64,000 nt of DNA from Candidatus Acidiferrales bacterium. GTDB lineage: Bacteria; Chloroflexota; Dormibacteria; Aeolococcales; Aeolococcaceae. Shown here piece by piece: positions 1-25,828 of the stretch. Where the stretch lies: contig DATLRX010000033.1 in assembly GCA_035534435.1 (NCBI GenBank), positions 88,560 through 152,559 on the forward strand, given 5' to 3'. The notes under the pieces are model-generated. The model was not told the DNA's origin, ran no database searches, and worked only from the letters and a program-made list of their open reading frames with translations. The first letter of the stretch is position 1. Each line of letters opens with the position of its first letter. The translations under genes and the position numbers were made by a program.

Positions 1-241
1 CTCCCACCGCCAGCACGATTCCCTGCGCCATGACGTCACCGGCTCTGAAGCCGGCGTAGCCCAGCACGCCGGCGAGCACGAGGTGGAGGACATCCCTCGT
101 GTATGTCAGATGGAGTGCGACGTGGCCCAGGTTGCCCTCCGGCAGATGATGGACGAGAGTCCCGGCGTCTCCGGTCAAGAACCCACCCACCCCGAGGACG
201 AGGAACACCATCGCGCCGAACTGGGCGTAGAGACGTGCCAT
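1..241 (-). CDS. small membrane protein, partial (5' end in window, 3' end cut by window edge); DUF4383-like
   Basis: Reverse strand from ATG at about 241 translates to MARLYAQFGAMVFLVLGVGGFLTGDAGTLVHHLPEGNLGHVALHLTYTRDVLHLVLAGVLGYAGF... with hydrophobic helices and His-containing loops. It starts 5 nt after the PP2C stop on the same strand. Absent from the ORF track because it is truncated. Confidence 0.3.
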   Translation of the reverse strand, partial: MARLYAQFGAMVFLVLGVGGFLTGDAGTLVHHLPEGNLGHVALHLTYTRDVLHLVLAGVLGYAGFRAGDVMAQGIVLAVG

Positions 242-246
242 CGAGG

Positions 247-1032
247 TCAGACGGTAGCCGATGGCGCGGGCAGCCAGCGATTCGCGACCATCGTCACATT
301 GTCGGTGCCGCCGCCCGCCAGCGCCGCGTCGCAGGCACGCGTCAGGGCAACGCCGAGCGGATCCGACGATGAAAGCACGGCGCCGAGCGCAGAGTCGGCG
401 AGCGGCTCCCAGAGACCGTCCGAACACAGCAGCAAGACGTCCCCGGGGGCTGCGTCCACTTCGAACACATCGGCTTCGACGGGGTCACCCATCACGGCGC
501 GCTCGATGAGATTGCGCTTCTGGTGGTGGCGAGCCTCCTCAGCGCTCATCGCCCCGGCGCGAACCTGGGCGGCTGCCCAGGAGTGATCCTCGGTGATCTG
601 CGTCACCGCCGCGCCGTGGATGAGATAGGCGCGACTGTCGCCCACGTTCACGATGGTGGCGTGCGCGCCGCGGACCACCGCGAGCACCAGCGTCGTCCCC
701 GGGTTGCCGCCGATCTGGTCGCGCACTCCGGCGACCGACCGGCTCGCGGCCGCGACAGCCTCGCGCAGCGCCTGTCGTGGATCGGCCTCCGGCGCGGCGC
801 TGGTCAGGACGGCCATCGCCCCCGTGATCGCAGCGTCGGCGGATTCGAGCCCGCCCTTGTGGCCACCCATGCCGTCGGCGAGCGCCAGCACAGCGCCGGC
901 ACCGTCGGGGCTCACCTTCGCCGCCCAGACATCCTGGTTCTGGGTCCGGACAGGTCCGATGTCGCTGATGCCCGCGATCTCCAGAAGCTCCGCGCCGCCG
1001 GGGATCGACCGCGAGGCGCGGTCTCCGGTCAT
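247..1032 (-). CDS. PP2C-family Ser/Thr protein phosphatase
   Basis: 261 aa. LADGMGGHKGG metal-binding motif, NVGDSRAYL, and C-terminal DG..D..NVT pattern typical of PPM phosphatases. Confidence 0.85.
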   Translation of the reverse strand: MTGDRASRSIPGGAELLEIAGISDIGPVRTQNQDVWAAKVSPDGAGAVLALADGMGGHKGGLESADAAITGAMAVLTSAAPEADPRQALREAVAAASRSVAGVRDQIGGNPGTTLVLAVVRGAHATIVNVGDSRAYLIHGAAVTQITEDHSWAAAQVRAGAMSAEEARHHQKRNLIERAVMGDPVEADVFEVDAAPGDVLLLCSDGLWEPLADSALGAVLSSSDPLGVALTRACDAALAGGGTDNVTMVANRWLPAPSATV

Positions 1033-1769
1033 GCCTCCGCCTCACCCTCGGCCGCGGCGGGATGCCCGAGCACGCGCCGCACCACCTCGTCTGCCGCCTC
1101 AACCGGCTCGAAGCACTGGATGGTCTGCATCCCGAGCGCGCTCGCCGCCTCGACATTGCAGAGGAGGTCGTCGATGAAGAGGCAGCGCTCCGCCACGACG
1201 CCGAGACGCTCGCACGTGAGCCGGTAGATCTCGGGATCGGGTTTGCGCAGGCCGACTTTCGACGAGTCCACGACGACGTCGAAGAGCTCCTCGACCGGGA
1301 ACAGGGCGCTGAAGATCGCCTCGCCCTCTCGCGAGATGTTCGTCAGCAGCGCTGTCTTGTAGCCGGCATCGCGAATCTGGCGCACCGCGTCCGCCATCGC
1401 CCCGCAGGCCACCATGCCGTGGCCGAAGATCACCTTCTGCGCGCCGCGCGGGTCGACCGGATCGTTGCCCGCGTCGGCGTAGCGCACGCACATGCGGTCG
1501 AAGAACTCGTCGTCACCGATCTTGCCCGTTTCGAGCAGGTGCAGATCGTGCGCGCCTGTCGTGAGGTGGTAGTGGTCGCGGAACTCGTTGAGGAAGAACG
1601 CGACCAGTCCGAAGAACTCCGGAGGGACATCGGTGCGGTGCCGGAAGAGGGGCTCCGTCATGACCCCGCCGAGATCGAAGATCACGCCGTCGAGGTCCCG
1701 ACCGGCATCGACCGGCTGCGTCGTCGTCTGCTCCTGAGTCATCGGCTCCATTGTGCCTAACCGTGCCAA
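1029..1769 (-). CDS. HAD-superfamily hydrolase (haloacid dehalogenase-like phosphatase)
   Basis: VIFDLGGVM motif I (DxD) and HAD motif order. ATGA overlap with the PP2C gene. True start may be an internal Met (MEPMTQEQ). Confidence 0.7.
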   Translation of the reverse strand: MARLGTMEPMTQEQTTTQPVDAGRDLDGVIFDLGGVMTEPLFRHRTDVPPEFFGLVAFFLNEFRDHYHLTTGAHDLHLLETGKIGDDEFFDRMCVRYADAGNDPVDPRGAQKVIFGHGMVACGAMADAVRQIRDAGYKTALLTNISREGEAIFSALFPVEELFDVVVDSSKVGLRKPDPEIYRLTCERLGVVAERCLFIDDLLCNVEAASALGMQTIQCFEPVEAADEVVRRVLGHPAAAEGEAEA

Positions 1770-2076
1770 GATGGCCGGTCATGAGAGCGGGTTGGACATC
1801 GCTGCCGTGGCCGAGTTGACAGCCTGCCCCTCCTTGAGCCAGGTCACGGAGGCGCGCGACCGGATCTCCGGCGTCGCGATTCGAACGCCGGTCGTGCCAC
1901 TGCATGACGAGTCTTCCCCAGGCATCCATCTCAAGCTCGAGAACCTGCAGCCGACGGGGCCGTTCACGGTCCGAGGCGCCACGAACCTGCCGGGCGGGAA
2001 CATCGACCCCGCGACACTGTTCGACATCGTCGCGCGCGAGCAGGAGGACGGACGTGCTGTACCTCACCCGGGCTGA
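1753..2076 (+). pseudogene. degenerate N-terminal fragment of a PLP-dependent threonine/serine dehydratase-like gene
   Basis: 107-aa ORF filling the HAD-ocd intergenic space. IRTPVVPLHDESSPGIHLKLENLQPTGPFTVRGATN matches the TdcB/IlvA N-terminal signature (..LK.EN.Q.TGSFK.RGA.N), but the catalytic Lys is replaced (SFK to PFT). The ORF terminates after about 75 homologous residues. A paralog of the intact gene at 2989..3918. Confidence 0.3.
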
Positions 2077-2992
2077 CGTCGAGCGGATGCTCGCGCCGGC
2101 CGAGCTGCTCGACGCGCTCGAGCGAGGCTTCCGTGCGTACTCGACCGGTGCCGCCTCGGTACCACCGCGCACCGCTGCGCGCACCCCTGCCGGTCTCCTC
2201 GGCGCCATGCCCGCGTGGGTCTCCGGCGGTGGGCTCGCGCTGAAGGCGGTGAGTGTGTTCCCCGGCAACGGGGCGCTCGGCCTTCCGTCACATCAGGGTG
2301 TCATCACGCTCTTCGACGAGCGGGACGGGGGCCTGCTGGCGGTGATGGACGCCGAGCACATCACCGCCATGCGTACCGGCGGAGGTGCGGCGGTGTCGGT
2401 ACGACTGCTCGCGCGCGCTGACGCCAGGACGCTCGCCATCGTCGGCGCCGGCGTGCAGGGGCATTCGCACCTCGCCACCGTCCCGCTGACTCGCGAGTTC
2501 ACCGAGATCCGGGTCTCATCGCGCGACATCGACAAGGCACACACCCTGGCGGCGCTCGATCCGCGCTGCGTCGTCGTTGAGGGATTCGAGGAGGCAATTC
2601 GCGGTGCCGACGTCGTGTGCTGCTGCACCGACACGCGAGAGCCGATCACGCGTGCCGGATGGTTCGCGCCAGGGACGCACGTGACGTCCGTCGGTGGCAC
2701 GTTCGGACCCGAGCTCGATCCCGAGACCGTCGCTCTCAACCGCGTCTTCGTCGAGTGGAGAGGTGCGGCCGAGAACGCACCCCCCGCCGGCGCGCATGAG
2801 CTGCAGGGACGTGATCCCGGGTCCATCACCGAGCTTGGTGAGCTGATCGCGGGGCTCAAGCCGGGTCGTGAGAACGACACCGAGATCACCGTCTACAAGT
2901 CGACCGGCAGCGGGTTTGAGGACGCGGTGACGGCGCGAATGGTCTACGAGGCGGCTGTGGCCGCGCACGTGGGAACCGAGCTCGAGCTGTGA
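2054..2992 (+). CDS. ornithine cyclodeaminase / mu-crystallin family protein
   Basis: GTG at 2054 preceded by AGGAGG. 312 aa. Rossmann GAGVQG motif and overall OCD/mu-crystallin architecture. The longer ORF-track N-terminal extension is Arg/Ser-rich junk. Confidence 0.8.
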   Translation: MLYLTRADVERMLAPAELLDALERGFRAYSTGAASVPPRTAARTPAGLLGAMPAWVSGGGLALKAVSVFPGNGALGLPSHQGVITLFDERDGGLLAVMDAEHITAMRTGGGAAVSVRLLARADARTLAIVGAGVQGHSHLATVPLTREFTEIRVSSRDIDKAHTLAALDPRCVVVEGFEEAIRGADVVCCCTDTREPITRAGWFAPGTHVTSVGGTFGPELDPETVALNRVFVEWRGAAENAPPAGAHELQGRDPGSITELGELIAGLKPGRENDTEITVYKSTGSGFEDAVTARMVYEAAVAAHVGTELEL

Positions 2993-3918
2993 CAACGCTG
3001 CTCGAGCTCGGCGCGGATGAGGTGCGCGAGACCGCTGCGCGGCTCGCCGCCGACATCCGCCATACACCGCTCATCGCCGCGCCCGGCGGTGGCTTCCTCA
3101 AGCTCGAATCGATGCAACCCACCGGCAGCTTCAAGGTGCGCGGGTTCTTTGCCGCCGCACACGCGATCGACCCTGACCGCGTCGCGCGCGGCTTCCTGTC
3201 GGTGAGCGCCGGCAACGCGGCGCTTGCGTGCGCGTATGTCGCGCACTCGCTCGGCGTCCCATGTCGCGTCGTCATGTACGAGAACGCGCCGCGTCCGAAG
3301 ATCGACGGCGTGCGCGCCCTCGGTGCAGTGCCGGTGCTCCTGCCGCGCGAAGGAGTGATGGATTGGATCACGAGACGAGGGTGGGAAGGTGAGCCCGAGG
3401 TCTTCGTGCACCCGTTCGCCGACGCCGACGTCATCCGCGGCCACTCCTCGATCGTTCCGGAGATCCTCGCCGACTGTCCCGATGTCGAACGCGTGCTCGT
3501 GCCGGTGGGAGGCGGCGGTCTCATCTGTGGCATCGCGCTCGGCTTTGCGGCGCTCAAGCCCGACGTGCAGGTCGTCGGGGTGCAGTCCGACGGGTATCCG
3601 TTGTGGCAGCAGGCATTTGCCGCCGGCGGTCCCGTGGCGCCTGTTCCGGACACCATCGCCGACGGCACCACGGCGCCGTTCACCGAGGTCATGTTCGAGC
3701 GCCTGGGCGCCCTCGTTCATGAGTGGGTGATCGTTCCGGAGATGGCCATGCGTGCGGCGATCGCACAGCTCGCCACTGCCGCAAAGGTCGTCGCCGAGGG
3801 CGCCGGAGCGCTCGCGTTCACGGCGATGCAGCAGGAACCGGAGCGGACGCACACCGTTGCCGTCCTCAGTGGCGGTAATCTCGATGCGGTGCGCCTGGCC
3901 GAGCTGCTGACCGTATAA
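2989..3918 (+). CDS. PLP-dependent threonine/serine dehydratase-like enzyme (fold type II)
   Basis: 309 aa. LKLESMQPTGSFKVRG (PLP Lys), SAGNAA, GGGGL glycine loop. 4-nt overlap with the preceding OCD gene. Confidence 0.8.
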   Translation: MTTLLELGADEVRETAARLAADIRHTPLIAAPGGGFLKLESMQPTGSFKVRGFFAAAHAIDPDRVARGFLSVSAGNAALACAYVAHSLGVPCRVVMYENAPRPKIDGVRALGAVPVLLPREGVMDWITRRGWEGEPEVFVHPFADADVIRGHSSIVPEILADCPDVERVLVPVGGGGLICGIALGFAALKPDVQVVGVQSDGYPLWQQAFAAGGPVAPVPDTIADGTTAPFTEVMFERLGALVHEWVIVPEMAMRAAIAQLATAAKVVAEGAGALAFTAMQQEPERTHTVAVLSGGNLDAVRLAELLTV

Positions 3919-3928
3919 GGAGCCTGCG

Positions 3929-4315
3929 ATGAGCGATGCGGCACTCGAAATCGTGTTCGACCATTTCCACGCGCGCCGGCGGCGCGACATCGCGGCGGTG
4001 ACGGCCGGCCTCGACCCGGACGTCGTCCACCAGGGCGTGTTGCCGAGTCTCGTGTGCAACGGGCGAGACGCCGTTGTCGAGCGAATCGCATCGAGCTTCG
4101 ATGACCACGACGACCGTGGTATCGAGCGTCTCGAGTTCCTCGCGGCGGGCGAGCACGTGATCGTGTCCATCGCCGGCACGAGGTTCCGCGAGATCCCATT
4201 CCTGGACGGCGAGATCTTCATGCTCTTCACCATCCGCGACGGCCGCATCGCCCGAATCGACGACTTTGCAACCCGGGGGGATGCGCTGCTGGCAGCGCAG
4301 ACGCCGACAGGCTAG
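3929..4315 (+). CDS. SnoaL-like / NTF2-fold small protein
   Basis: 128 aa. AAGGAG RBS 7 nt upstream. Cone-like alpha+beta composition with conserved Asp/His typical of SnoaL polyketide-cyclase-like proteins. 10 nt after the dehydratase gene. Confidence 0.55.
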   Translation: MSDAALEIVFDHFHARRRRDIAAVTAGLDPDVVHQGVLPSLVCNGRDAVVERIASSFDDHDDRGIERLEFLAAGEHVIVSIAGTRFREIPFLDGEIFMLFTIRDGRIARIDDFATRGDALLAAQTPTG

Positions 4316-4713
4316 GCCGACGCCGGCGCCAGCTCCTGCAGCAGCGCCTCCACTCGTTCGTCGATCTCATCGCGGATCCGTCGCACCGTCGAGAGTGGCT
4401 TGCCGGCGGGATCCTCGAGCTCCCAGTCGAGATACCGCTTGCCCGGGTAGAACGGACACGCGTCGCCGCATCCCATCGTGATGACCACGTCGGCGGTGCG
4501 CACGGACTCGTCCGTCAGCGGTTTCGGAAACTCCCTGCTGATGTCGATGCCGACCTCGGCCATTGCCGCGACCACTGCGGGGTTGAGCCGGTCGGCGGGC
4601 TCCGATCCCGCGGAGCGGACATGGACAGTCCCTCGGGCCCGACGGTTGAGGAGCGCCGCCGCCATCTGTGAACGGCCTGCGTTGTGCACGCAGACGAACA
4701 GGACCTCAGGCAC
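4312..4713 (-). CDS. arsC: arsenate reductase, LMW-PTP (thioredoxin-coupled) type
   Basis: 133 aa. VLFVCVHNAGRSQMA P-loop with CX5R, plus a downstream Cys pair. Confidence 0.85.
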   Translation of the reverse strand: MPEVLFVCVHNAGRSQMAAALLNRRARGTVHVRSAGSEPADRLNPAVVAAMAEVGIDISREFPKPLTDESVRTADVVITMGCGDACPFYPGKRYLDWELEDPAGKPLSTVRRIRDEIDERVEALLQELAPASA

Positions 4714-5755
4714 GCGATCCGTCCTGGTCCGGAAAGACTCGGCGGGCGGCGAGCGCGACGTAGACCAAGCCGACGAGCACCGGCACCTCGATCAGTGGGC
4801 CCACCACGCCCGCCAACGCCTGTCCTGATGCGGCGCCGAAGGTCGCGATGGCCACGGCGATCGCCAATTCGAAGTTGTTGCCCGCAGCGGTGAAGGCGAG
4901 CGTGACCGCCCGGGGGTACGGAAGCCGCAATGCGCGGCCAAGGGCCATCGAGCCAGCCCACATGGTCGCGAAATAGACAAGCAGCGGCACCGCGATGCGG
5001 GCCACGTCCAGGGGATGCGAGGTGATCGCGTGGCCCTGCAGCGCGAACAGGATGACGATGGTGAACAGCAATCCATACAACGCGAATGGACCGAGCCGGG
5101 GCAGCAGCCGAGCCTCGTACCACGCACGACCTCTGGCCCGTTCGCCGACACGTCGGGTGAGGTACCCCGCGAACAGGGGGATGCCGAGAAAGATCAGCAC
5201 ACTGCGCACGATCGACCAACTCGACACGGTGAGGTGCGCAGCCGACAAGCCGAGCCATCCGGGCAGGACCTGGAGGTAGAACCATCCAAGGACACCGAAG
5301 GCGAGGACCTGAAAGATCGAGTTGAGGGCGACCAGGACCGCGGCAGCTTCTCGGTCTCCACCGGCCAGGTCGTTCCAGATGATGACCATTGCGATGCAGC
5401 GTGCCAGTCCGACGATGATCAGGCCCGTTCGGTAGGAGGGGAGATCAGGGAGAAAGATCCAAGCCAGCGCGAACATGAGGGCGGGCCCGATCAGCCAGTT
5501 GAGAATCAGTGAGGGCACCACCAGCCTCCGGTCGCCGGTAACCGTGTCGAGCCGGTCGTACCTCACCTTGGCCAGCACCGGGTACATCATCAGCAGCAGC
5601 CCCAGCGCGATGGGGAGCGACACACCGCTGACCTCGACCGTGGACAGTGCGGTGCCCAGGCCAGACCAGGCGCGCCCGAGAATCAGGCCGACGGCCATCG
5701 CCAGGGCAATCCAGGCCGGCAGGAACCGATCCAGGGTGGACAGGCGGCTCGCAAC
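4706..5755 (-). CDS. acr3: arsenite efflux permease, ACR3 family
   Basis: Polytopic membrane protein. LDRFLPAWIALAMAVG N-terminus and MYPVLAKVRYD motif typical of Acr3. The track ORF carries an N-terminal extension. The GTG start near 5755 is inferred, so the start is uncertain. Confidence 0.8.
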   Translation of the reverse strand, partial: VASRLSTLDRFLPAWIALAMAVGLILGRAWSGLGTALSTVEVSGVSLPIALGLLLMMYPVLAKVRYDRLDTVTGDRRLVVPSLILNWLIGPALMFALAWIFLPDLPSYRTGLIIVGLARCIAMVIIWNDLAGGDREAAAVLVALNSIFQVLAFGVLGWFYLQVLPGWLGLSAAHLTVSSWSIVRSVLIFLGIPLFAGYLTRRVGERARGRAWYEARLLPRLGPFALYGLLFTIVILFALQGHAITSHPLDVARIAVPLLVYFATMWAGSMALGRALRLPYPRAVTLAFTAAGNNFELAIAVAIATFGAASGQALAGVVGPLIEVPVLVGLVYVALAARRVFPDQDGSRA

Positions 5756-5819
5756 CGGCCCTGCGCCCGGCGCGGAACCGGAACGGACGGCGACGGCCTC
5801 GTCGGCCGGACTCACGGCA

Positions 5820-6251
5820 TCAACAGCAGCCGGAGGTCGCGTCGTGCGTGCCGCAGCATCCCTCGCCAACAGCGCCGGCCGTCTCCGCCGGAGCGTCGGC
5901 GAGCACCGTGTACACCTCCCAACGGGTATCGGCGCCGGCAACCCAGACCTTGTCCTGGAGCGCATGGCAGCATGTCACGCCATCCTCGACCTCGGTTGGC
6001 AGGCCTTCGGCAGTCAGCCGCCGTGTCGCTGACACGACCTCGGCGGTTGACGAGACCTCCACGCCAAGGTGATTCAATGTGCCCGCCTGTGCGGGATTCT
6101 CGAACAGGACGAGCTTGAGCGGCGGGTCGGCGACGGCGAAGTTCGCGTACCCCGGGCGCCGCTTTGCGGGCTCGGACTGAAAGAGCTTCGAGTAGAAGTC
6201 AACGGCCGCATCGAGGTCGCTGACATTCAGCGCGAGTTGGACCCTTCCCAT
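5820..6251 (-). CDS. glyoxalase/VOC-family CadI/ArsI-like protein with vicinal cysteines
   Basis: MGRVQLALNVSDLDAAVDFYSKLF...GYANFAV...LKLVL...HLGVEV glyoxalase fold. TCCHALQDKVWV vicinal Cys pair and a Cys-rich tail (GCCGTHDATSGCC). First gene of the acr3-arsC operon. Confidence 0.65.
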   Translation of the reverse strand: MGRVQLALNVSDLDAAVDFYSKLFQSEPAKRRPGYANFAVADPPLKLVLFENPAQAGTLNHLGVEVSSTAEVVSATRRLTAEGLPTEVEDGVTCCHALQDKVWVAGADTRWEVYTVLADAPAETAGAVGEGCCGTHDATSGCC

Positions 6252-6266
6252 GTCAGCACGAGCATC

Positions 6267-6338
6267 CGCAGTCACAGGTCCCGTCGCAGTCACAGGTCCC
6301 GTCGCAGTCACAGTTGCAATCGCAGTCCACGGTGCAGC
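6267..6338. repeat. four tandem 18-bp direct repeats (CGCAGTCACAGGTCCCGT x2 perfect, x2 degenerate) in the arsR / cadI-acr3-arsC divergent region
   Basis: Read directly from the sequence. Copies 1 and 2 are identical. Copies 3 and 4 retain the CGCAGTC.CA core. They lie upstream of the inferred cadI-like start, or would encode TATGPV repeats if the longer ORF were real. Confidence 0.7.
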
Positions 6339-6343
6339 CTCCT

Positions 6344-6374
6344 ATCGATAAACGTCGATTGATCACAGCGATCA
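6344..6374. promoter_or_regulatory. candidate ArsR operator: inverted repeat ATCGA-N6-TCGAT followed by TGATCACAGCGATCA
   Basis: Palindromes seen about 25-55 nt upstream of the arsR start, in a divergent promoter region. Confidence 0.4.
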
Positions 6375-6399
6375 TACGTTGTTCCATCGACGGCTGTCA

Positions 6400-6780
6400 A
6401 TGGGTAGAATGAGCCCTGTGCCCACCACACCGAAGCCGTTGATGGCCCTCCCCGTCGTCGATCGGGTCAAGGGATGCAGCCAGCAGGTCTCGGATCCCCT
6501 CCCCGCGGCACGCGCCGACGTTCTCGCCGGTGTCCACAAAGCACTCGGTGATCCGACACGCGTCCAGATCCTGCACATCCTGGCTGCCGCCACCGAACCG
6601 GTCTGCGTCTGCGATTTCACCGCGGCATTCGACCTGGGGCAGCCGACGATCAGCCATCACCTGGCGAAGCTGCGTGAGGCGGGCATCGTGACCAGCTTCA
6701 AACGCGGGATCTGGGCCTTCTATCAACTCGATCCGGAGATGCCGGCAGCCGCCCGGTCCGCGATCGAGCTCCTTCGCTGA
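6400..6780 (+). CDS. arsR: ArsR/SmtB-family metalloregulatory transcriptional repressor
   Basis: Winged-HTH metalloregulator. ELCVCDF-type CVC As(III)-binding motif (PVCVCDFTAAF). HTH (QPTISHHLAKLREAGIV). Divergent from the ars operon. Confidence 0.8.
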   Translation: MGRMSPVPTTPKPLMALPVVDRVKGCSQQVSDPLPAARADVLAGVHKALGDPTRVQILHILAAATEPVCVCDFTAAFDLGQPTISHHLAKLREAGIVTSFKRGIWAFYQLDPEMPAAARSAIELLR

Positions 6781-6947
6781 TCTGAGGCCTCCCGAGCCGC
6801 GAGCGCCGGCCCGACCGAACGATGGTCTGAACGGTCCAAACGACCGGCCACCCGAACTGCCATGCTGGGCTCCGACGCATTGACGGACGGCTGAGCCCGC
6901 ATTGGGCGTGTGCCGTCCGTTCTCCGCGCCGAGAGTGTGGGGGTGAG

Positions 6948-7751
6948 GTGGTGAGAAGCATCGTTGTGTCTGCGCTGGCCTGCGCCTGGATGGCGGCGGC
7001 TGCATCCGGTTGCGGCGCATTGGCGCCGCAGCATGCGCCGAGTGCACCCGCGGTCCGGGCGTCGCCGGCGATCAGCACGAGTCCATCGGCGACGGCAAGC
7101 GGACCATGCGCGGGCGTCACGGCGACGGTGAGCATCGACGACGTGGCGCCGGCGTGTCAGGCGCGCTGGGTGCCGTACGGGGTCACCGAGGTTCCGCCCG
7201 CGAACGAGCTGACGATCGAACACGTCCCCAACGCGCCGGCGGTGGTCAACATGACCGACGGGGCGGTGACCGACGCGACGGCGCAACACTGGGCGAATGC
7301 CAGCAACTGGGACAGCGGCTGGTGGCAGTGGGCGCAGGCTCACGGCCAGCTCTTCATGTTGCGCAACCTGGTCGGTCCGGCCCTCATCCCCGTCGCCGAG
7401 GTCGAGGCACTCCAACACGGGGGGACCGTCGCCCAACCCGACTGCAATCTCTACCCCGTCAGCTCCACGTTGTTCGCGGTCGGCGACGCCGGCAGGGCGT
7501 ACTTCGCTCGCAAACACCTACCGACCGATGACACGTACGTCTTCGTGGTCGTGTACCGCGGCCCGTGCAGCGAAACGCTCAGAACCGCTGACGGAGTGAC
7601 GTCGTCGATCGTCGACTTCACGGAGAACACCACCGTGTTCGCGCCGGGCACCTTGCGCAGCGACCCGGTCCTCGGTGATCTCTGGTTCGCCGATGCGGGA
7701 GGCAACTGTCAGGACCCGCTCGGGCCGCCACCCGTCTGGTGCGGTCGGTGA
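6948..7751 (+). CDS. putative lipoprotein, unknown function
   Basis: GTG start with a G-rich RBS. Signal peptide plus lipobox (AAASGC). Trp/Asn/Tyr-containing non-junk composition. Several Cys residues. Confidence 0.5.
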   Translation: MVRSIVVSALACAWMAAAASGCGALAPQHAPSAPAVRASPAISTSPSATASGPCAGVTATVSIDDVAPACQARWVPYGVTEVPPANELTIEHVPNAPAVVNMTDGAVTDATAQHWANASNWDSGWWQWAQAHGQLFMLRNLVGPALIPVAEVEALQHGGTVAQPDCNLYPVSSTLFAVGDAGRAYFARKHLPTDDTYVFVVVYRGPCSETLRTADGVTSSIVDFTENTTVFAPGTLRSDPVLGDLWFADAGGNCQDPLGPPPVWCGR

Positions 7752-9019
7752 CGCGGCGCCTGCGCTGTCTGTGCCTGACGCTCGCGCTGACGGGCCTGCT
7801 GCCGCTTGCATCGGCATCCGCCGCAGGCGGCGGGGGCGGTTCCGGGGCGCCGGGCCCGGGGCCGTCCGGGGCGGGCAGCGCAGCGTTGACGCACGGCAGA
7901 CTCGTCACCGGAGCAGGCGGCACCTACCTCCCGATCACGCCGACGGACATCGTCCCCGATGGATCGGATCCACCGAACCCGCTCCGCATACCGCCGAAGG
8001 GACCGAATCCACAAGGGATGTCGTGCCCCACGACGAGCCTGTTCCATGTCGGACCGGGCTCACCTGCACCCGGGGGCGGCGTGGTCGCGGTGATCGCGAT
8101 CCATCCCACGTTCACGCGAAACGCAGGCGGCGGCTACGACGGATCCGACGCGCGTTTCGCATACACACTCCGCAACGCAATCCCTGCCGGCGGCGACCCG
8201 ACGGCAACGTCGCCCGGGAGCCTCGCGACCGAGGCGAACGTGATCGGTCATGTCGTCGCGGTCACGGCGTTCCTGCGGACGCGCGGAACGTGGGAGGACG
8301 CGCAGCCCGTCGCACCGTTCGGCGGGAGTTGCGTCGGCGCGAGCTTCACCTTCAGCGCGCCGTACCTCGCAGGTGATGCGCCGCCACCCACGCCGCCCCC
8401 CGGGATGCTCACCACACCGCCGTTCCCGACCGGTGCGCCGCTTGCCGCCGCATTGACCGCGGCGTGGACCATCGGGAGCGTCGCGACGTTGCCCGGACCG
8501 GCGCCGACCGCGCGCACCTTCGTCCACATCCCGACGTGCGCGTGGACGCAGTCAGATGTTCCGGCGCAGCCGGCGGCCCTGCACGCGCTGAGCGCGGCCG
8601 TCGTCGGCGGATACACGCTCTTCCTGCTGTACGACGTGGTGGTCACGCCGGGACCGGTGACATGGCGCTGGGGAGACGGCACGAGCAGCACCGCCGCGGG
8701 CCCCGTTGAACACGCACCGACGAGCCTGCCCCGCTACGACCCCTCGACGCAGATGTGGACGGCACCGTGCGCCGTGAGCCACGCGTACGACGCGGTTTCC
8801 GGCGGGGTGACCATCACCGCATCCGAGACCTTCCGGATCGCCATCACGGTGAGCTGGAGCGACGGCCTCAGCGTCCACACACAACCGGTTGCGTGCGATG
8901 CCGTTTCCGGTGGCGCCTGCAGCATCGCGCTCGGCCCCGCCAACGGCTGGTCGAGCGGGCCGCATGCGGTCGATCAGATCGAGCCGGTTCCCTTCGCGCC
9001 GCCGACCCCGGCACCATAG
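7739..9019 (+). CDS. secreted Pro/Gly-rich protein, unknown function
   Basis: Signal peptide (LALTGLLPLASASAAGG) and a Gly/Pro-rich linker. Multiple Cys. Overlaps the preceding lipoprotein gene by 13 nt. Confidence 0.5.
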   Translation: MRSVTRRLRCLCLTLALTGLLPLASASAAGGGGGSGAPGPGPSGAGSAALTHGRLVTGAGGTYLPITPTDIVPDGSDPPNPLRIPPKGPNPQGMSCPTTSLFHVGPGSPAPGGGVVAVIAIHPTFTRNAGGGYDGSDARFAYTLRNAIPAGGDPTATSPGSLATEANVIGHVVAVTAFLRTRGTWEDAQPVAPFGGSCVGASFTFSAPYLAGDAPPPTPPPGMLTTPPFPTGAPLAAALTAAWTIGSVATLPGPAPTARTFVHIPTCAWTQSDVPAQPAALHALSAAVVGGYTLFLLYDVVVTPGPVTWRWGDGTSSTAAGPVEHAPTSLPRYDPSTQMWTAPCAVSHAYDAVSGGVTITASETFRIAITVSWSDGLSVHTQPVACDAVSGGACSIALGPANGWSSGPHAVDQIEPVPFAPPTPAP

Positions 9020-22025: not shown

Positions 22026-23159
22026 TCACGGTAGCGCAGCGGGTGCGGCCCCAGGCAGCCTCGGCATCCCGTCTGAGACGCCGCAGAGGATCTCGTGCGG
22101 CAGCGTCCCGGCCAGATCGCCGACCTCGTCGGCACCGATACGGACTCCGTCGCGTTCGCCGATGAACATCGCCACGTCGCCTGCCGCCACGCCATCGATG
22201 TCCGTGACGTCCACGCTGACCTGATCCATGCTCACCATCCCGACGATCGGGCAGCGGCGGCCGCGGATTGCGAGGTGTCCGCAGTTGGAGAGGGCACGCG
22301 GCAGCCCCTGCCCGTAGCCCATCGTCGCCGTGGCGATCCGGCGCGCCGTCTCGGCTCGCCACGTCCTCCCATATCCCACCGTTTCCCCCGGCGCGACCGT
22401 GCGCACCTGGGCGACCCTGCAGAACACATGCATCGCGGGCCGGAGCGACGGCGGTCCCGGCACCGGTGGATAGCCGTAGAACGCGATGCCGACACGGACG
22501 AGGTCGTGATGCATCGCCGGGTGCGCCAGCACCGCGGCGCTGCCCGACGTGTGCAGCAGCGCGTCCGGCGCAAGCGGTCGGATCACCTCGACCGCGTCGA
22601 GGAACCGCGTGTGCTGCGTGATGGTGAATGCCGAGTCCGAACCCGCGTCAGCGAAGTGCGTGAACAGGCCCGCCACCTCGACGCGCTCACCCGCGTCTCG
22701 CAGCGCCGCAACCAGAGACTCCACCGTCTCGGGAAGGGTGCCGAGCCGGTGGAGTCCACTGTCGATTTTGACGTGTCCGCGGACCCGGCGTCCCGTCCGG
22801 CCCGCGGCGGCTGCCGCGGCGCGAACACCGTCGGCGTCGAGGATGCCGATGTCGACATCGGCGTCGATCAGCCGGTCCTCCTGCCCTGGCGGCGTCCACC
22901 CGAGGACGAGCATCCGTGCCGTCACGCCCGCGGCACGCAGCTCGATCGCCTCTCCCGGCGTGTACACGCCGAGCCAGGTCGCTCCGCCGTCGAGTGCAGC
23001 CCTGGCGGCGATCCGGATCCCGTGCCCGTACCCGTTCGACTTGACCATGGCCATCAACCGGGCGGGACGGACCAGCGTCGCGATGACCGCCGCGTTGCGC
23101 GCCAGCGTGTCGACGTCGATCTCCACCCAGCGGAGGTGGTCGCCGGACGGTTCCGTCAC
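22026..23159 (-). CDS. alr: alanine racemase
   Basis: AMVKSNGYGHG PLP-Lys motif and C-terminal domain Tyr context. 377 aa. Confidence 0.85.
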   Translation of the reverse strand: MTEPSGDHLRWVEIDVDTLARNAAVIATLVRPARLMAMVKSNGYGHGIRIAARAALDGGATWLGVYTPGEAIELRAAGVTARMLVLGWTPPGQEDRLIDADVDIGILDADGVRAAAAAAGRTGRRVRGHVKIDSGLHRLGTLPETVESLVAALRDAGERVEVAGLFTHFADAGSDSAFTITQHTRFLDAVEVIRPLAPDALLHTSGSAAVLAHPAMHHDLVRVGIAFYGYPPVPGPPSLRPAMHVFCRVAQVRTVAPGETVGYGRTWRAETARRIATATMGYGQGLPRALSNCGHLAIRGRRCPIVGMVSMDQVSVDVTDIDGVAAGDVAMFIGERDGVRIGADEVGDLAGTLPHEILCGVSDGMPRLPGAAPAALP

Positions 23160-25828
23160 GCTCCGACCGGCACCGGCTCCGGCGGCGGCGCGGCGGCCTT
23201 CTCGAGCGTCACGCGGCGCACGAGGCCGAACGGCGTCTGCTCGTCCGACTGCCCCAGCGGGTTATCGGCAACCATGGCTAGAACAGCGTCGGCGTCGACG
23301 CCGACGGTCGCGAACACCTCCGCGGCCATGTCGTTGGCGTCGATGACGGCGACGCCGACGCGGCGTCCGGTGCGCCCACGAACCTCGGCGGCGATGCGCA
23401 ATGCCTCGCCCGACGCATCGAGCGGCGACTTGGTCGCCCATGTGTCGTACGGCGGGAGGTTCAGCGAGGACGGTCCGTCGATCGCGTTGACACCGTGGCC
23501 CGCCACACGGTAGAAGATGCCGCGCATCCCGAGCGGCTTGGTGACGGCCGCCGCGGCGGCGGCGAGCAGTATCCGCGGGACGCCCGCCTCGTCGATGGCG
23601 AGTTGCATCGTCGTCGGATGGGCCAGCCCGATGCCCGTGGGCTCGTGGCTCACGTAGCGCGACAGCAGCCGGGCCGCGCGTGACACGGGGATCTCATCGA
23701 TCGGATACGAGCGGCCCTGGCTGATTGCAAGTGCTTTCTCGCTGATCAGCAGCACGTCGCCGTCCTCGATCGCCACCCCGCCCTTCTCGAACTGCTCGAG
23801 GCTGTCGCCGATGATCTGCATGAGATCCGCACCCGGCACGATCAGCGCCGAACGCAGCGGGTATCGCGCCCAGATGCGGCCTTTGTCCTCGAGGAAGAGG
23901 TGACGGCCCCAGTTGAGGCGAGCGCCGTCGAGCAGCGCCTGTCCGCCGGCCACCTTTGCGGCCGTGGCCTGGTCACCGCGGCGCACGAAGCCACCGTGAT
24001 AGCTGTGATCGTCGAGCGCGCGGGTCGAGCCGTCGATGTAGATGCGCAGCCAGACCTCGGCGTTCACCGCGCGCCAGAAGAACATCGATTCCTCGACCTC
24101 TCCGGCGCATGCGCGGCGGAAGCCCTCCGCCACGGCCGCGGCCTTCCAGTACGGTCGCCCGCGGAACGACGGCGAGCGCATGAGGCTCTGCAGCACCGCG
24201 CGCTGGCGCCGGTACCAGCGGAACTCCGGGGTGGTGAAGCCGATCTTCTTGCGCCGCCGCTCGACGGCGCGAGGCAGCGTCCCGTGCAGCGCCTGCCGCA
24301 CGATGGCGCGCGTCCATCCGTTGTGGATGATCGCGGTCCTCGGCAGCGTGAGGATGTAGTCGACCAGCTCCTGGTCGAGGAACGGCAGGCGGGCCTCGAG
24401 TGAGTGCGCCATCGACGCCCGGTCCTCGTACCGAAGCAGCGGCGGGAGGCTGTACGTCCGGAAATCCTGCAGCAGGCGGCGCTTCAGGTCGTCCGCCACG
24501 CGATCGTCGTCGGGGGGTTTGCGGCCGCGCGTGAACGCCGGGGAGAGCATCGATGCGACGTCCACGCGCTGGCCACGCTCGCGCAGGCGGCGGCGCACCA
24601 GGGGGCCGACGATGTCACGCAGCAACCAGGCCTCGTGCGCGAACTCCGTGTAGCGGCGCTCGCGCAGGAGCTGGCGCAGCAGGACGTAGGGGTAGTGGTC
24701 GTACCCGGCGAGCAGCTCGTCGCCCGCCTGACCGTCGAGGGTGACCGTGACCTGGCGCCTCGCGAGACGCATCACCATCCACATCGCGAACGGCGCCGAC
24801 GACACCATCGGCTCCTCCATGTGCCAGACCCACGCCTCGAGCTCGCGGATGAAGTCCTGGTCGCTGGGACTGACGGCGCTGTTGTCGGCGCCCGTCTTGT
24901 CGAGAACGCTTTTGATGTAGGCGCTCTCGTCGATTCGATCCCCCGGGAACACGGCCGAGAACGTCTTGAGCCGGTCACCGAGCGACTCGGTGTCCGGAAC
25001 ATGGTCGCGCAGCTGCTGCGCCATCACCGTGCAGATCGACGACGAGTCGAGACCACCGCTGAGGCAGATGCCGACCGGCACATCGGCGACGAGGCGGCGC
25101 TGCACTGCGCGCTCGAACACCGCGCGAAAGGCCTCCGGGCTCGCGTCGCCGTCCTCCGACAGGCGCGGCGTCCAGTACGTCGTCTCGGAGATGGCGCCGC
25201 CCTCGATGATCGCGAATGCGGCGGCGGGCACCTGGCGGATCCCGCGAAAGAACGTGCCGTCGTTGTGGTCGAACAATCCAAAGCGCAGGTACTCGTACAT
25301 CTGCTGCTCGTCGACCTCGCGCGGGAACGTCTCGTCCTGGAGGATCGCCTTGATCTCCGACGCGAAGATGACGCGCCCGTGGTGGCGCGCGTAGAACAGC
25401 GGCTTGATCCCGAAGTGGTCGCGCGCGAGCACGAGCTTCGGGCTCGCTGCGCGCCTGTCGAGGATCGCGAGCCCCCACATGCCGTTGAAACGCCGGAAGC
25501 AGTCCGTGCCCCACTCGGCGTACGCATGGAGCACGACCTCGGTGTCCGACGCGGTGTGGAAGGTGTGCCCGAGCGGTTCCAGCTCGGCGCGCAACTCCCG
25601 GTAGTTGTAGACCTCGCCGTTGTAGACGATCTGGAGCTTGCCGCCGTCCATCGCCATCGGCTGATTGCCGTGCGCGAGGTCGATGATGCTGAGCCGGCGG
25701 AACCCGAGCGAGGCGATCTCGTCCTCGTAGCGACCTTCGTCGTCGGGGCCACGATGCCGGATCGACTCCGTCATCGCAGTGAGCAGTGCGCTGTCCGGTG
25801 CGCCCCAGAATCCGGCGATGCCGCACAT
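23156..25828 (-). CDS. fusion protein: asparagine synthetase-like (glutamine amidotransferase + PP-loop synthetase) fused to a CofE-like (F420-0:gamma-glutamyl ligase fold) domain
   Basis: A single 890-codon frame. It starts MCGIAGFWG (Ntn Cys2) and carries SGGLDSS (PP-loop). The C-terminal ~260 aa contain GDVLLISEKALAISQGR, AIDGPSS and LPPYD...GRRVGVAVIDANDM in CofE motif order. No internal stop. Confidence 0.75.
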   Translation of the reverse strand: MCGIAGFWGAPDSALLTAMTESIRHRGPDDEGRYEDEIASLGFRRLSIIDLAHGNQPMAMDGGKLQIVYNGEVYNYRELRAELEPLGHTFHTASDTEVVLHAYAEWGTDCFRRFNGMWGLAILDRRAASPKLVLARDHFGIKPLFYARHHGRVIFASEIKAILQDETFPREVDEQQMYEYLRFGLFDHNDGTFFRGIRQVPAAAFAIIEGGAISETTYWTPRLSEDGDASPEAFRAVFERAVQRRLVADVPVGICLSGGLDSSSICTVMAQQLRDHVPDTESLGDRLKTFSAVFPGDRIDESAYIKSVLDKTGADNSAVSPSDQDFIRELEAWVWHMEEPMVSSAPFAMWMVMRLARRQVTVTLDGQAGDELLAGYDHYPYVLLRQLLRERRYTEFAHEAWLLRDIVGPLVRRRLRERGQRVDVASMLSPAFTRGRKPPDDDRVADDLKRRLLQDFRTYSLPPLLRYEDRASMAHSLEARLPFLDQELVDYILTLPRTAIIHNGWTRAIVRQALHGTLPRAVERRRKKIGFTTPEFRWYRRQRAVLQSLMRSPSFRGRPYWKAAAVAEGFRRACAGEVEESMFFWRAVNAEVWLRIYIDGSTRALDDHSYHGGFVRRGDQATAAKVAGGQALLDGARLNWGRHLFLEDKGRIWARYPLRSALIVPGADLMQIIGDSLEQFEKGGVAIEDGDVLLISEKALAISQGRSYPIDEIPVSRAARLLSRYVSHEPTGIGLAHPTTMQLAIDEAGVPRILLAAAAAAVTKPLGMRGIFYRVAGHGVNAIDGPSSLNLPPYDTWATKSPLDASGEALRIAAEVRGRTGRRVGVAVIDANDMAAEVFATVGVDADAVLAMVADNPLGQSDEQTPFGLVRRVTLEKAAAPPPEPVPVGA

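Follow-up and report, generated by a model that had tools for sequence, protein, structure and literature searches.

We found that the window analysed here, a 64,000-nucleotide stretch of contig DATLRX010000033.1 (assembly GCA_035534435.1; ~69% G+C) from a Candidatus Acidiferrales bacterium placed by GTDB in the Dormibacteria, contains a decayed four-gene operon. It consists of the remnant of a gene for a fold-type-II pyridoxal 5'-phosphate (PLP) enzyme (PALP1), a gene for a protein of the ornithine cyclodeaminase (OCD)/mu-crystallin family, a second gene of the fold-type-II PLP class (PALP2) and a gene for a SnoaL-like protein (Table 1). The OCD-like gene and PALP2 form a conserved, translationally coupled pair across the Candidatus Dormibacterota, the phylum to which the organism belongs and whose metagenome-assembled genomes (MAGs) supplied the named homologues, and this pair is the functional and evolutionary core of the locus; PALP1 upstream, and the SnoaL-like gene with an ars cluster downstream, were added at the locus only in the clade of the window. 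We regard the two core genes as a phylum-restricted orthogroup pair of an already known enzyme-pair type and not as a new three-enzyme pathway.

The OCD-like, PALP2 and SnoaL-like genes are real, intact and under purifying selection, with ratios of nonsynonymous to synonymous substitution (dN/dS), calculated against the related locus L005 (81% identical), of 0.079, 0.119 and 0.129, respectively. In agreement with an earlier note on this DNA, PALP2 begins on the GTG of a GTGA that overlaps the stop codon of the OCD-like gene by 4 nt, its Schiff-base lysine (Lys49) lies within SFKVRG, and the SnoaL-like gene, with a strong ribosome-binding site (RBS), AAGGAG, at 3917-3922, follows the TAA stop of PALP2 after a gap of 10 nt; at this locus it is probably co-transcribed with the pair. 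The OCD-like gene has a GTG start with AGGAGG (2042-2047) located 6 nt upstream, inside the PALP1 remnant. An upstream ATG at 1904 is an alternative start, but the start at 2054 is preferred because nearly all of the ~120 orthologues listed have 312 aa. No further copies of the PALP1, OCD-like, PALP2 or SnoaL-like genes were present in the window, an Rfam scan of the whole window revealed no RNA element, and a promoter and terminator scan of positions 1000 to 5000 gave nothing above chance and no sigma-70 consensus.

Table 1. Features of the operon and of the neighbouring genes in the window
Feature	Position	Strand	Remarks
Conserved divergent leader, 28 nt	1743-1770	.	CGGCTCCATTGTGCCTAACCGTGCCAAG; between the start of the HAD hydrolase gene (minus strand) and the first plus-strand gene of the operon
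PALP1 remnant, 101 codons	1771-2076	+	Second TdcB/EutB-like fold-type-II PLP dehydratase; weak PALP and EutB-like N-terminal matches
OCD/mu-crystallin family protein, 312 aa	2054-2992	+	PF02423, E = 2.9e-62; predicted NADPH-dependent imine or ketimine reductase
PALP2, 309 aa	2989-3918	+	Catalytic-domain-only Ser/Thr-dehydratase-like fold-type-II PLP enzyme; PF00291, E = 7.4e-57
SnoaL_2/NTF2-like protein, 128 aa	3929-4315	+	PF12680, E = 6.1e-9
arsC (LMWPc)	4312-4713	-	
ACR3/SBF arsenite carrier	4706-5965	-	
Glyoxalase/ArsI-like gene	5820-6311	-	
arsR	6379-6780	+	
Two overlapping genes, 267 and 426 aa	6948-7751 and 7739-9019	+	No Pfam or NCBIfam match

The linkage of the OCD-like gene to PALP2 extends well beyond the close relatives of the window. 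At a syntenic site, in which PP2C and HAD genes (minus strand) precede OCD-PALP2 (plus strand) and gpmI-tpi-pgk-gap (minus strand) lies farther on, the pair and its 4-nt overlap were found in L005, L007 to L009, L066 and L067; these genomes are 69-98% identical, and the pair is kept with or without PALP1 and the SnoaL-like gene. For example, in L066 and L067 (PALP2 ~69% identity) two uncharacterised genes follow the pair, and PALP1, the SnoaL-like gene and the ars genes are absent. In the metagenomic contig L069, the OCD (71%) and PALP2 (64%, with the SAGNAALA loop described below) genes lie side by side in divergent orientation, and their surroundings are unrelated. In addition, for 26 of the ~120 top OCD and PALP2 clusters the longest contigs were of equal size, 15 of these contigs being shorter than 10 kb. 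This distribution among Dormibacterota loci indicates that the robustly linked unit is OCD-PALP2, with the SnoaL-like gene outside it. The earlier note had named as the result that would tell against it a placement of both enzymes in housekeeping TdcB and proline OCD clades with no conserved linkage; for the pair this is not what was found, because the linkage is conserved across the Dormibacterota, and no NCBIfam equivalog cut-off was reached.

The first gene of the operon, absent from the earlier note, has largely been deleted. Intact PALP1 genes in relatives (L004/L005) encode 341 aa and lie between the HAD and OCD genes. Window positions 3-1988 align with L005 positions 1376-3340, and positions 1993-4713 align with 4065-6785, so that PALP1 has undergone a net in-frame loss of 720 bp (240 codons) in the window. 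In the remnant, which overlaps the OCD-like start by 23 nt, 73 N-terminal codons are joined to 27 C-terminal codons, the PLP lysine has been replaced by threonine (SFKVRG to PFTVRG), and the N-terminal part shows a dN/dS of 0.36, compared with 0.08-0.13 for the intact genes, that is, relaxed constraint. Three independent assemblies (L007, L008 and L009, from ENA, GenBank GCA_025450215.1 and Logan) share an identical 101-codon remnant, so the remnant is real and an assembly artefact is ruled out. The deletion preserves the reading frame of the remnant, whose stop codon therefore remains at 2074-2076, within the OCD-like gene just past the RBS of the latter; this may keep translation coupled to the OCD-like start. 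PALP1 is not a close copy of PALP2 (only 35% identity); the top NCBIfam match of the intact protein is EutB (242.3 bits, under the cut-off of 413), and since relatives with 53-57% identity to PALP1 stand alone in other places, PALP1 was recruited into the operon. One side observation concerns the relatives themselves: in L004 (OY970307.1, 5061-5990) PALP2 is split by one 1-nt indel with respect to the otherwise 99.9%-identical L005, and this split, in a long-read chromosome, may reflect faulty assembly and need not mark a pseudogene.

A neighbour-joining tree of concatenated OCD and PALP2 sequences grouped the window with L007, then with L010, then with (L005, L011) and (L013, L057), and then with (L021, L023), L066/L067 and L069 falling outside this clade; PALP1, the SnoaL-like gene and the ars genes occur at the locus only inside it. 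The history of the locus can be followed from the 28-nt leader, which is near-identical in the window, L005 (~3095-3122), L013, L031 (~7957-7984), L041 and the more distant L066 (~5037-5065), whatever gene comes next, and which is thus kept across genomes with only ~70% identity at the protein level. The leader is followed by OCD in L066 and by PALP1 (MAGHESG...) in L005 and the window; in L013 and L057 (~6100-6140) it is followed by a PALP1 scar, the first ~21 nt being joined to the last ~12 nt including the RBS, and then by OCD. This residual scar of both ends of the gene rules out an ancestral absence of PALP1 from L013 and L057. In L031 (7980-8010), the first three PALP1 codons are fused in frame to the SnoaL-like gene, and in L041 (7900-8010) ~100 nt separate the leader from that gene. 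The deletions include an internal one in PALP1, a near-complete one of PALP1 with a scar, and two losses of the three enzyme genes together, which differ in their junctions. From these differing sequences behind the leader, we deduce that the enzyme genes of the clade have been cut back by no fewer than four separate deletions, each of which left the SnoaL-like gene in place. The 28-nt element presumably serves as a promoter or leader, and the 19-28 nt of intergenic space suggests that promoters lie within coding sequence or that the mRNAs are leaderless. Apparent frameshifts are seen as well in L057, where they affect OCD, PALP2 and the SnoaL-like gene.

Family membership of the proteins was judged by NCBIfam equivalog cut-offs, Pfam gathering scores and signature residues. 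The OCD-like protein belongs to PF02423 (210.9 bits against 24) and has a Rossmann motif, GAGVQG, at 131-136; across 120 orthologues there is no variation in the substrate-binding tetrad R39-K64-R107-D290 (family pattern [R/K]-K-R-D), in Gly50 or in Ser156-Arg157. Its closest solved structure is the Thermococcus litoralis Δ1-pyrroline-2-carboxylate (Pyr2C) reductase/alanine dehydrogenase (AlaDH), TlLhpI (6t3e, E = 2.3e-52), and further structure matches are Archaeoglobus fulgidus AlaDH (AfAlaDH; 1omo, 5.7e-44) and mouse and human CRYM. The residue roles in the OCD/CRYM superfamily were taken from Watanabe et al. (PMC4141209), in which the specificity position, the one that in OCD contacts the distal amino group of the substrate, is Glu56 in true OCD (Pseudomonas putida), Arg52 in AfAlaDH and Leu52 in TlLhpI. 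At this position the OCD-like protein has the invariant Gly50, as in CRYM, and in place of the NAD-specific Asp159 of TlLhpI, which follows the second Rossmann strand, it has the invariant Ser156-Arg157, aligned with Asn-Arg of CRYM; both the OCD-specific acidic residue and the NAD-specific Asp are therefore lacking. CRYM is NADPH-dependent. The retained tetrad, the CRYM-like Gly50 and the Ser-Arg in place of the NAD-specific Asp lead us to predict an NADPH-dependent imine or ketimine reductase and not a true cyclodeaminase.

Comparison of the OCD-like protein with two known groups of the superfamily gives likenesses and differences in each case. It shares with TlLhpI and AfAlaDH, the closest structures, the catalytic tetrad and flanking Ser/Thr dehydratase genes, which are often found beside LhpI homologues (PMC4141209), but it scores far below the cut-off of the archaeal-type AlaDH model (TIGR02371; 183.2 against 409.15), has Gly instead of Leu or Arg at the specificity position and Ser-Arg instead of Asp, comes from a mesophilic soil phylum, and is not accompanied by genes for a proline-racemase-like trans-3-hydroxy-L-proline dehydratase or a proline dehydrogenase. 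TlLhpI itself has AlaDH, N-methyl-alanine dehydrogenase and Pyr2C reductase activities (PMC4141209). With CRYM, the ketimine reductase/thiomorpholine-carboxylate dehydrogenase (mouse CRYM, E = 1.3e-40), it shares the GxLGxMPA motif with the specificity Gly and the Asn/Ser-Arg motif where NADPH- and NAD-dependent members differ; it differs in having only ~35-40% identity, in being bacterial and operon-coupled to a PLP enzyme, and in lacking a thyroid-hormone-binding context.

PALP2 belongs to PF00291 (193.4 against 35), and its top PDB match is TdcB (2gn0, 1.2e-40), followed by serine racemase. Lys49 in SFKVRG, GGGG at 174-177, EGAGA and the loop SAGNAALA are all invariant in 120 orthologues, and this loop occupies the position of the canonical substrate loop SAGNH(A/G)Q. 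An exhaustive search against 50%-identity representatives showed that the orthogroup is isolated, the best full-length representative being 51% identical (281 bits) and the next 40% (189 bits); of the 150 nearest representatives, 91 carry GNH, SAGNAALA was seen only in members of the orthogroup, and the nearest outgroups are metagenomic proteins labelled 'threonine dehydratase'.

On these grounds we consider it an even call that the pair acts as a dehydratase and imine-reductase couple of the kind represented by BhcB/BhcD or EutB/EutC. PALP2 would catalyse beta-elimination of a beta-hydroxy, or otherwise beta-substituted, alpha-amino acid to an enamine/2-imino acid, and the OCD-family protein would use NADPH to reduce that imine, or the 2-oxo acid after its re-amination or cyclisation, so that a saturated L-amino acid is formed. 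Overall, a beta-substituent would be removed reductively, as in conversion of Ser to Ala, of Thr to 2-aminobutyrate, or of a larger substrate. The Gly50 pocket suggests a substrate bulkier than the imine of pyruvate, and the SAGNAALA loop suggests one that is not plain Ser or Thr. In Paracoccus denitrificans, BhcB converts beta-hydroxyaspartate to iminosuccinate, which the OCD-family BhcD reduces to aspartate. Like that system, the pair combines a fold-type-II PLP dehydratase with an OCD-family enzyme, which in the case of BhcD reduces the imine product before it can hydrolyse; the window proteins also give matches to the models for BhcB and BhcD and to 6rqa, a structure of BhcD. Unlike it, the pair scores only 147.6 against 550 (BhcB, NF045641) and 131 against 500 (BhcD, NF045643), carries the SAGNAALA loop and a cofactor motif predicting NADPH, and has no bhcA (aminotransferase) or bhcC (aldolase) gene adjacent at the loci examined.

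The analogy to EutB/EutC drawn in the earlier note, a dehydratase beside an OCD-family enzyme, is apt. The ectoine genes likewise place a threonine-dehydratase-like gene beside an ornithine-cyclodeaminase-like gene (PMC3187862), and PALP1 has EutB as its best match, but all scores are below the cut-offs (PALP2 against EutB, 162.3 with TIGR02991 and 144.3 with NF005680, both against 413; the OCD-like protein against EutC, TIGR02992, 140.9 against 472), and no eutA, eutD, eutE, doe, ectoine transporter or EnuR-type regulator genes were found at the loci examined. The EutB/EutC reactions are not biochemically established, and Halomonas elongata grew on ectoine without impairment after eutBC had been deleted (PMC3187862). 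Since neither cut-offs nor neighbourhoods fit, the pair belongs to neither BhcB/BhcD nor EutB/EutC. The pair may nevertheless follow the same chemical logic; a dehydratase-then-reductase order is assumed for EutB/EutC.

Several points weigh against this interpretation. Because the His and Gln of the SxGNHxQ loop are missing, PALP2 may not act on Ser or Thr, and its sequence would also be compatible with a racemase or a beta-replacement enzyme. Similarly, the NADPH preference and the imine reduction of the OCD-like protein are read from aligned residues. In L070, the 6.7 kb covered around an OCD orthologue contain no PALP gene, and the deletion of the whole enzyme block in two genomes shows that the pair is dispensable. 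Finally, the conserved 10-nt spacing makes a clade-specific functional link of the SnoaL-like gene to the pair conceivable. A minus-strand neighbour of the operon was considered as a source of substrate, but the HAD protein was rejected as a phosphoserine phosphatase feeding PALP2, as its best match is an epoxide-hydrolase-N-terminal-like phosphatase, below the cut-off.

It is fairly unlikely that the two genes are merely separate housekeeping neighbours, namely a Ser/Thr ammonia-lyase (TdcB-like or a substitute for IlvA) and a proline-forming OCD or an AlaDH. Such a reading would agree with the best NCBIfam and PDB matches, which are threonine ammonia-lyase/TdcB for PALP2 and archaeal AlaDH/Pyr2C reductase for the OCD-like protein, with the position of the locus among gpmI, tpi, pgk and gap, and with the JGI labels 'threonine dehydratase' and 'alanine dehydrogenase' given to orthologues. 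The scores, however, are far under the cut-offs, both for PALP2 (TdcB, NF006389, 185.9 against 453; ilvA_1Cterm, TIGR01127, 184.6 against 378.75; TIGR01124, 135.5 against 411.3) and for the OCD-like protein (OCD, EC 4.3.1.12, NF005762, 105.4 against 350; AlaDH as given above). Moreover, PALP2, at 309 aa, matches no more of the IlvA models than their catalytic part and has neither the ACT regulatory domain nor the GNH/Q loop residues, both the Glu specific to OCD and the Asp specific to NAD are missing from the OCD-like protein, and the stop/start overlap and adjacency of the genes persist phylum-wide, the adjacency even through an inversion.

A cyclic-ketimine route, in which the OCD-like protein would be a reductase of Pyr2C, Δ1-piperideine-2-carboxylate (Pip2C) or another cyclic ketimine in the catabolism of D-proline, hydroxyproline or D-lysine type compounds, and PALP2 a racemase or a dehydratase with a cyclising product, appears quite unlikely. 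The second-best NCBIfam match of the OCD-like protein is indeed the Pyr2C/Pip2C reductase, of which 6t3e is an example, its Gly50 pocket and NADPH motif resemble those of the CRYM ketimine reductase, and the second PDB match of PALP2 is, as noted, a serine racemase; but the match is below the cut-off (NF004793, 179.7 against 322; LhpI, NF045512, 80.8 against 400), and near the pair at the loci examined there is no gene for a proline-racemase-like dehydratase, a D-amino-acid dehydrogenase or a transporter. The chemistry is also unfavourable, since secondary amines are poor substrates in PLP external-aldimine chemistry.

A more ambitious possibility, which we hold to be improbable, is that the pair is a new reductive 'beta-deoxygenation' module, characterised by NADPH, a CRYM-like pocket and SAGNAALA and acting on a compound that is none of Ser, Thr, beta-hydroxyaspartate and hydroxyectoine. 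The clade of the window would then have been extending such a module, by PALP1 and the NTF2-like protein, to a four-enzyme route to a non-proteinogenic amino acid, a route that deletions in several lineages would now be dismantling.

The place of the SnoaL-like protein must be judged separately. It belongs to PF12680 (SnoaL_2; 36.9 against a gathering score of 27) and falls short of the SnoaL polyketide cyclase family PF07366 (16.9 against 28.4). The AlphaFold model has an alpha+beta cone fold (predicted local distance difference test score 89.9, predicted template modelling score 0.85), and Foldseek returned probability 1.0 to many NTF2-like structures, although only generic neighbours with identity of at most 25%, among them a ketosteroid isomerase (KSI)-fold protein (4kvh), TerC and limonene epoxide hydrolases (LEH); a sequence search of the PDB gave nothing below E = 0.66. 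The family score, the confident fold and the Foldseek probability thus place the protein in the SnoaL_2/NTF2-like superfamily, but its low identity to any solved protein, with no verified match to the SnoaL, KSI or LEH catalytic constellations, and the near restriction of its family to Dormibacterota MAGs set it apart. Its many invariant charged residues (D11, R16, R17, H34, Q35, R85, E95, R109, D111, D112) suggest that it is probably an enzyme.

Scanning the SnoaL alignment against one genome per species yielded 56 loci, almost all from the Dormibacterota, and the 8-kb neighbourhood of each was searched by tblastn with the PALP1, OCD, PALP2 and SnoaL proteins. OCD and PALP genes were found in only seven loci (L010 to L013, L021, L023 and L057); two others, L031 and L041, have the arrangement HAD (minus), SnoaL (plus) and ArsC (minus) with no enzyme genes, and the remaining 47 have neither OCD nor PALP gene within that distance. 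About 28 of these 47 stand-alone genes are flanked by a gene for a 312-aa uncharacterised protein (minus), tatA (minus), a CHAP hydrolase gene (plus) and an EamA gene (plus), and no conserved metabolic neighbour was seen in this usual context beyond these. The usual upstream neighbour (L001, 4956-5894, minus strand; ~28 loci) encodes 312-350 aa without a Pfam match; the N-terminus is Pro-rich, and the protein has a domain rich in Ser, Thr and Gly and is predicted to contain a membrane helix. The gene is followed by tatA and the CHAP peptidoglycan hydrolase gene; this neighbour type, together with the tatA/CHAP genes, indicates that the context is envelope-related and not metabolic. In contigs with the pair at the syntenic site (L027 and L001, on the L066/L067 contigs), the SnoaL-like gene lies ~30 kb from the pair. 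One MAG, Candidatus Dormibacter sp. cluster2_bin.63 (L049 and L060), carries two SnoaL-family copies with 50-54% identity to the window protein, other genomes having a single match, suggesting paralogy in deeper branches of the family.

These data bear on the earlier proposal of a dedicated OCD, PLP and SnoaL route to a non-proteinogenic amino acid or small molecule, in which the NTF2-like protein cyclises or dehydrates an intermediate; such a route is very improbable. Its best support comes from the 10-nt spacing behind PALP2 with AAGGAG and the probable co-transcription, an arrangement kept in at least eight species of the clade (L005, L007, L010, L011, L013, L021, L023 and L057; ~8 species in all), from the invariant charged residues and from the fact that PALP1 and the SnoaL-like gene joined the locus on the same branch. 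Against this, the gene stands without OCD or PALP in most species, lies ~30 kb away at the syntenic site, was kept behind the same leader in L031 and L041 when PALP1-OCD-PALP2 was lost, and encodes a protein whose fold matches only generic NTF2-like structures. The predicted role in a cyclisation or dehydration step is accordingly not borne out, and co-occurrence of the trio, which the earlier note had wished to see checked in other genomes, holds in a single clade; what stands of the proposed operon is that its genes are real and its pair is conserved, but the trio is not a unit, as the 47 of 56 loci attest, and the operon originally had four genes. A literature search for an OCD, threonine dehydratase and SnoaL combination found no paper describing such a trio. 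Most likely, the SnoaL-like protein functions on its own as a small enzyme or a binding protein, its gene having arrived downstream of the pair and being expressed together with it, rather than supplying a required third step; the close spacing and strong RBS of this gene are not evidence of functional linkage.

Synthesis of L-2,3-diaminopropionate (L-Dap) in the manner of SbnA/SbnB, an analogy also drawn earlier, pairs the same two superfamilies and gives weak matches to the hidden Markov models, but it is scarcely credible and effectively ruled out, since PALP2 is TdcB-type and not CysK-type (SbnA, TIGR03945, 39.7 bits against 349.95), the OCD-like protein scores 111.3 against 326.9 (SbnB, TIGR03944) with a CmnK match of only E = 8e-7, and no siderophore or non-ribosomal peptide synthetase genes are nearby.

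The Dormibacterota, a soil phylum, are abundant and uncultured, and to our knowledge hardly any of their proteins have been characterised experimentally. The names 'ornithine cyclodeaminase', 'alanine dehydrogenase' and 'threonine dehydratase' are unsupported here, and a likely annotation error is thus corrected. The clear signatures (Gly50 and Ser156-Arg157 in one protein, SAGNAALA in the other) make the pair a concrete target for heterologous expression, from which a third characterised dehydratase/imine-reductase example could result beside BhcB/BhcD and, as assumed, EutB/EutC; OCD-family imine reductases are in addition of biocatalytic interest. These findings will not surprise specialists and open no long-standing question.

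Downstream of the operon, the convergent ars cluster (4312-6780) begins with arsC, which overlaps the end of the SnoaL-like gene by 4 nt; in the relatives L004/L005, a MIP (aquaglyceroporin-type) gene takes the place of ACR3. Beyond the cluster lie two uncharacterised genes and then gpmI-tpi-pgk-gap-whiA-uvrC. The two genes, of 267 and 426 aa, are syntenic with uncharacterised genes between the operon and gpmI in L066, L067 and L005. Farther on, a gene for an 890-aa protein on the minus strand (23156-25828), adjoining an alanine racemase gene (22026-23159), encodes an unusual fusion of the domains of a glutamine-dependent asparagine synthase (GATase_7 and Asn_synthase) with a C-terminal F420-0:gamma-glutamyl ligase-like domain.

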